From assembly GCF_003334815.1 (NCBI RefSeq), contig NZ_QOWO01000004.1: a stretch of 64,000 nt of DNA, one strand, 5' to 3'. The DNA comes from Escherichia coli (GTDB taxonomy: Bacteria > Pseudomonadota > Gammaproteobacteria > Enterobacterales > Enterobacteriaceae). The position numbers and the translations under genes were made by a program. The notes under the pieces are model-generated. The model was not told where the DNA came from. It ran no database searches and worked only from the letters and a program-made list of their open reading frames with translations. Positions 63,785 through 63,956 of the stretch are shown in pieces. Position 1 is the first letter of the stretch. Each line of letters begins with the position of its first letter.

Positions 63785-63868
63785 TTAATTTCGATTATTT
63801 TTCCCGGATGGAAAATTCTTAGAAACCGATCACATACAGCTGCATTTATTAAGGTTATCATCCGTTTC

Positions 63869-63956
63869 GCTGAAAAACATAACCCATAAAATGCTAGCTG
63901 TACTAGGAACCACCTCCTTAGCCTGTGTAATCTCCCTTACACGGGCTTATTTTTTT
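63869..63956 (+). ncRNA. cyaR: CyaR (RyeE) Hfq-dependent sRNA
   Basis: Sequence gctgaaaaacataacccataaaatgctagctgtactaggaaccacctccttagcctgtgtaatctcccttacacgggcttattttttt matches my recollection of CyaR; terminal hairpin plus U-tract; immediately downstream of yegQ as in K-12. Confidence 0.85.

Follow-up and report, generated by a model that had tools for sequence, protein, structure and literature searches.

Sequence Analysis of the cyaR Small RNA Gene and Its Putative CRP Promoter Downstream of yegQ in Escherichia coli

cAMP-CRP activates the small RNA CyaR (RyeE), which is Hfq dependent (PMC5861431; PMC11795201). Its seed hairpin represses ompX, yqaE, nadE, luxS, yobF, and hdeD through a block of translation and RNase E decay, and the RNA is absent in crp mutants (PMC5861431; PMC11795201); further control is exerted by CpxR and possibly by sigma-E (PMC5861431). 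CRP-dependent expression, Hfq binding, and target repression are known by experiment in E. coli, Salmonella, and Yersinia (PMC5861431; PMC11795201). Use of the 3′ end of the gene by phage P2 is also already published, P2-type elements having inserted at the "cyaR RNA" in strains W, K-12 (ogr-D′), and B (as prophages in W and B) and the site being empty in Crooks (PMC3032704, Table 2). Here, we report the analysis of a cyaR locus in a 64,000-nucleotide stretch of E. coli DNA (contig NZ_QOWO01000004.1; "the window"), where an initial annotation, made from the sequence alone, had placed CyaR immediately downstream of yegQ.

The features of the locus, in window coordinates, are as follows.

62423 to 63784 (+): yegQ (trhP) coding sequence, a 453-amino-acid open reading frame and the conserved neighbor upstream of cyaR
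63819 to 63834 (+): CRP-type site TTAGA-N6-TCACA (22-mer, 63816 to 63837), overlapping the −35 position
63856 to 63861 (+): −10 hexamer TATCAT, assigned by sequence and by TAnnnT at the same spacing in other species
63869 to 63956 (+): CyaR (RyeE) small RNA, about 87 to 88 nt, matching RF00112, its 3′ end lying within the U-tract
63904 (+): rare allele, U for C at CyaR nucleotide 36, immediately 5′ to the seed hairpin
63905 to 63918 (+): seed hairpin AGGA-ACCACC-UCCU, a C-rich, anti-Shine-Dalgarno target-pairing region on which the Rfam structure and the minimum free energy fold agree
63920 to 63956 (+): Rho-independent terminator (11-bp stem, 63920 to 63930 with 63937 to 63947; loop, 63931 to 63936; U7, 63950 to 63956)
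63929 to 63955 (+): unoccupied P2 attB within the 3′ end of the gene, matching the attP core of P2 at 27/27 positions

Identity, position, and distribution of the gene

The Rfam model CyaR_RyeE (RF00112) matched the window at 63867 to 63952 (plus strand) over its full length (model positions 1 to 85 of 85; 101.2 bits; E value, 2.9e-20), which is more than twice the gathering score of 47, and the match was seen again in a whole-window Rfam scan at the gathering score. The region thus scores as CyaR, the point on which the initial annotation had staked its identification, and all the elements that it had named (TCACA, TATCAT, the terminal hairpin, the U-tract, and adjacency to yegQ) were found in place. 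Its range of 63785 to 63956 takes in the entire intergenic stretch together with the gene; the RNA proper spans about 63869 to 63956, beginning at G63869, which we take to be the 5′ end of the K-12 RNA. With a probability of about 0.97, we assign 63869 to 63956 (plus strand) as the E. coli cyaR (RyeE) gene, encoding an Hfq-dependent, trans-acting small RNA with a putative class II CRP promoter. The gene is intact and in its usual place 3′ of yegQ, an ordinary and previously described feature.

The source of the window is E. coli, and the 87-nt cyaR gene was matched in 5424 of 5426 complete genomes of this species, always 3′ of yegQ (now trhP). Two of the 5426 were without any cyaR match, three matches in the collection sit on records labeled as plasmids, and in O157:H7 strain TR01 the match covers only nucleotides 1 to 63, which suggests a disrupted 3′ end. 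Homologues in other species were sought by scanning one genome per species with a 15-nt seed (120 matches) and keeping the 51 distinct loci that also bore the terminator-loop motif ATCTCCCT; this requirement removed about 70 of the 120 matches, unrelated chance hits in other phyla without CyaR context. The 51 loci were drawn from Enterobacteriaceae, Yersiniaceae, Pectobacteriaceae, Morganellaceae, and Hafniaceae.

Position directly 3′ of yegQ, as initially annotated, is borne out by the yegQ stop at 63784 and an RNA start at about 63869 on the same strand. Of the 51 CyaR loci from other species, 48 likewise have a YegQ homologue immediately upstream in the same orientation, and in the remaining 3 the flank is too short to judge yegQ synteny. 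The coding sequence is annotated as trhP/yegQ in K-12 and in the record of strain 52F4 (NZ_CM147848.1), which is identical to the window over 63300 to 64000. RefSeq/PGAP records, including NZ_CM147848.1, NZ_CP032667.1, and others, carry no feature at cyaR, in keeping with the initial remark that the gene is absent from the open reading frame track and easily missed. The practical value of the assignment lies in this annotation gap, as tracks based on open reading frames miss the gene.

Two further candidates near the gene were rejected: an Rfam match to COG2908 at 62754 to 62814, inside yegQ, was judged to be due to chance (18.3 bits against a threshold of 58.7), and a 45-amino-acid minus-strand open reading frame (63724 to 63861), overlapping the end of yegQ and the cyaR promoter, was judged spurious. 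Elsewhere in the window, a ParD antitoxin/RelE-ParE toxin pair (98 amino acids each; 61726 to 62320; annotated in 52F4) lies between yegP and yegQ, a gap that in K-12 measures only 146 bases. SIB RNA (RF00113), the antitoxin of a Sib/Ibs type I toxin-antitoxin locus, was found full length at 49600 to 49748 (plus strand; 142 bits). Other Rfam matches above the gathering score were two JUMPstart elements (9090 to 9128 and 33630 to 33668, both minus strand), an algC RNA motif (19018 to 19067, minus strand), and naRNA4 (14477 to 14547, plus strand).

Promoter region and CRP-type site

Both promoter motifs in the initial annotation, the TCACA half-site at 63830 to 63834 and the TATCAT −10-like hexamer at 63856 to 63861, can be read directly from the sequence. 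They had been taken as consistent with CRP dependence, a reading now strengthened by a full candidate site, TTAGAAACCGATCACA at 63819 to 63834, which is supported by conservation across species and by its fixed spacing to the −10 hexamer. The right half of the site is perfect, and the left half, TTAGA, matches at 3/5 positions, giving 2 mismatches to TGTGA-N6-TCACA; this degenerate left half is the reason why the full site was missed by eye. A consensus scan allowing up to 2 mismatches returned 19 CRP-type sites across the window, where 25 were expected, so that a match alone is not above chance; cross-species conservation was therefore used instead. One scan match, at 63926 to 63941 (TGTAATCTCCCTTACA), is the palindromic terminator stem and was discarded as a CRP site.

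For the conservation analysis, the window was compared with the 51 loci from other Enterobacterales species (52 sequences in all), which had been selected by the RNA seed and the terminator-loop motif, the promoter forming no part of the selection. GATCACA was invariant in 52/52 sequences, and the left half TTAGA was kept in 44/52, with T..GA or ...GA in most of the others, while the four central spacer bases of the site varied freely. A TAnnnT hexamer followed TCACA at exactly 21 nt in all 52. Bases between and around these blocks were unconserved, and no conserved −35 block was present across the 52 sequences.

A distance of 29.5 nt separates the center of the CRP-type site from the first base of the −10 hexamer downstream. 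As judged from the sequence, the site has class II CRP geometry, centered at about −41.5 if the hexamer is set at −12 to −7 or at −42.5 if counted from G63869, the presumed start. A sigma-70 consensus scan of 63600 to 64000 found no two-hexamer promoter; this result is not counted against cyaR, as activator-dependent promoters of class II lack a −35 element and therefore fail a test for two hexamers. In the mechanism that we propose, cAMP-CRP bound at TTAGA-N6-TCACA would recruit RNA polymerase, in class II fashion, to a TATCAT promoter without a −35 element, and this recruitment would switch CyaR on in the absence of glucose.

CyaR might instead come mainly from yegQ read-through and 3′ untranslated region processing, rather than from a CRP promoter of its own, with the hairpin serving primarily as the yegQ terminator. 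Such an origin would suit both the one-strand yegQ-cyaR arrangement, conserved across Enterobacterales, and the scan of 63600 to 64000, in which the stretch between the yegQ stop (63784) and cyaR held no terminator-like site, the only one in the scanned region being the cyaR terminator. It is difficult to reconcile with the conservation of the CRP-type site and the −10 hexamer, at a fixed spacing, in 52/52 sequences amid varying bases, a pattern that would be surprising if the promoter did not work, and with the published absence of CyaR in crp mutants (PMC11795201; PMC5861431). Moreover, in Serratia, Yersinia, and other distant genera, a hairpin and T-run can be made out on visual inspection in the stretch separating yegQ from the CRP site. 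We therefore consider a read-through origin highly improbable and favor transcription of cyaR from its own putative class II CRP promoter. The yegQ transcripts themselves probably end at the cyaR terminator, because 63785 to 63868 is without a terminator-like site.

RNA structure and a rare allele at nucleotide 36

The fold predicted for CyaR from the window is the Rfam structure (−19.7 kcal/mol; z = −3.0 against shuffles). Its seed hairpin consists of a 4-bp AGGA/UCCU stem and an ACCACC loop, presenting the conserved C-rich seed ACCACCUCC. The seed sequence is identical in 51/51 homologues, an invariance that is not independent evidence, since the seed was the search pattern.

The terminal hairpin and U-tract of the initial annotation correspond to an 11-pair, G+C-rich hairpin (63920 to 63947) followed by T7 (63950 to 63956); the U7 3′ end is presumed to be the Hfq-binding end. 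Across 44 distinct sequences (alignment A1), the terminator helix was 99.2% paired, with both-sided (compensatory) changes at 9 of its 11 pairs. None of 500 shuffles reached the observed covariation, and in a control with slid partners pairing fell to 29 to 57%. The terminator loop with its closing pairs, AAUCUCCCUU (63929 to 63938; A1 columns 30 to 39), is almost invariant in the 51 species, even though the remainder of the stem covaries freely. Such constraint is unusual for a loop and hints at a second function, e.g., a second pairing site or a protein contact; the terminator-loop sequence has already been marked as conserved (PMC11795201).

The C-rich loop and 3′ arm of the seed hairpin (ACCACCUCCUU) mimic the anti-Shine-Dalgarno sequence, and the transcript ends in the 11-bp Rho-independent terminator and U-tract. 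In the proposed mechanism, the seed would pair with the ribosome-binding sites of ompX, nadE, luxS, yqaE, hdeD, and other mRNAs, and this pairing, with Hfq on the 3′ U-tail, would block translation and promote RNase E decay. By analogy with the published systems, we infer that CRP control, Hfq dependence, and target repression hold in this strain too.

Compared with cyaR of K-12 MG1655, 86 of 87 bases are identical, the sole difference being T for C at 63904 (nucleotide 36). The exact K-12 allele was found in 4821 of 5426 E. coli records, and the exact window allele was found in 2 (52F4, from a calf, and E02, from a human). U at this position occurs in 24 of the 51 other species and is also the Rfam consensus (u); it was seen in the sampled loci of Yersinia, Serratia, Pectobacterium, Dickeya, Photorhabdus, Xenorhabdus, Proteus, Providencia, Edwardsiella, and Hafnia. 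The structure predicted with U36 is unchanged, at −19.7 versus −19.8 kcal/mol.

The rarity of the allele (2/5426, against 4821 for that of K-12) and the position of the base, abutting the seed hairpin, would both be expected if this were a decayed or altered copy in which the C-to-U change impairs or retargets CyaR in this strain. We regard this as very unlikely, since U36 is the normal base in 24/51 species, including Yersinia, where CyaR is proven functional (PMC11795201), the Rfam consensus is u, the predicted fold and energy are unchanged, and all other cyaR elements are intact. U36 is accordingly judged neutral in an intact cyaR, although it could, with low probability, influence target choice subtly. 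We also consider it very unlikely that U36 alters seed accessibility, or lengthens or shortens pairing with some mRNAs, and so makes the CyaR regulon of this lineage slightly different. Were that true, it would be a natural single-base variant of an E. coli small RNA matching the normal state of non-Enterobacteriaceae, e.g., Yersinia and Pectobacterium.

The P2 attachment site and comparison with known systems

The attP core of P2 (AF063097.1, 24356 to 24382, annotated as attP and as the Int core site) matches 63929 to 63955 at 27/27 positions, and the last 27 bases of cyaR would thus double as the P2 chromosomal attachment site. The window, like strain 52F4, is continuous through the site, with no prophage or remnant. 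This P2 site at cyaR presumably corresponds to locI of the older literature on the phage. Since P2 itself brings in a copy of the final 27 bases of cyaR, integration would rebuild the terminator.

The attP match in the 3′ 27 bases, together with the lack of a RefSeq feature at cyaR, is what one might expect of a chance resemblance or of an untranscribed relic kept only as a phage attachment site. Neither would account for a full-length model match at an E value of 2.9e-20, for conservation that extends outside the att core, for a covarying terminator and a conserved promoter, or for the retention of cyaR in species that differ from the P2 core at 1 to 9 of the 27 positions. The Rfam score, covariation, and promoter conservation effectively refute this reading already, and we consider its probability vanishingly small; the locus is best read as a genuine cyaR gene whose 3′ end also serves as an empty P2 site.

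CyaR is a textbook CRP-controlled small RNA, and the present work adds little beyond correct annotation, leaving the understanding of the RNA unchanged. Added here are the class II CRP promoter footprint over five Enterobacterales families, the empty P2 site, and the rare allele.

CyaR/RyeE of K-12 lies at the same locus after yegQ and has the same seed hairpin and terminator. The alignment of the promoter to that of K-12, which the initial annotation had proposed, was run and showed the 84 upstream bases to be identical. The two loci differ at the 3′ end, where the K-12 match to the window is split into two segments separated by about 629 bases; the K-12 insert consists of ogrK and a truncated late-control D gene, a remnant flanked by a repeat of ACACGGGCTTATTTTTT at the same chromosomal point. 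The U-tract has 7 bases in the window and 6 in K-12, because the K-12 gene abuts the P2 remnant at its 3′ junction and the site in the window is uninterrupted; rebuilding of the terminator from the phage copy would thus explain why K-12 cyaR ends in T6-A and the window copy in T7. With class II CRP promoters such as galP1 (center near −41.5), the putative site shares its position over the −35 region, the lack of a −35 hexamer, and a fixed −10 spacing, and it differs from them in a left half of TTAGA instead of TGTGA and in a center at −42.5, instead of −41.5, when counted from G63869.
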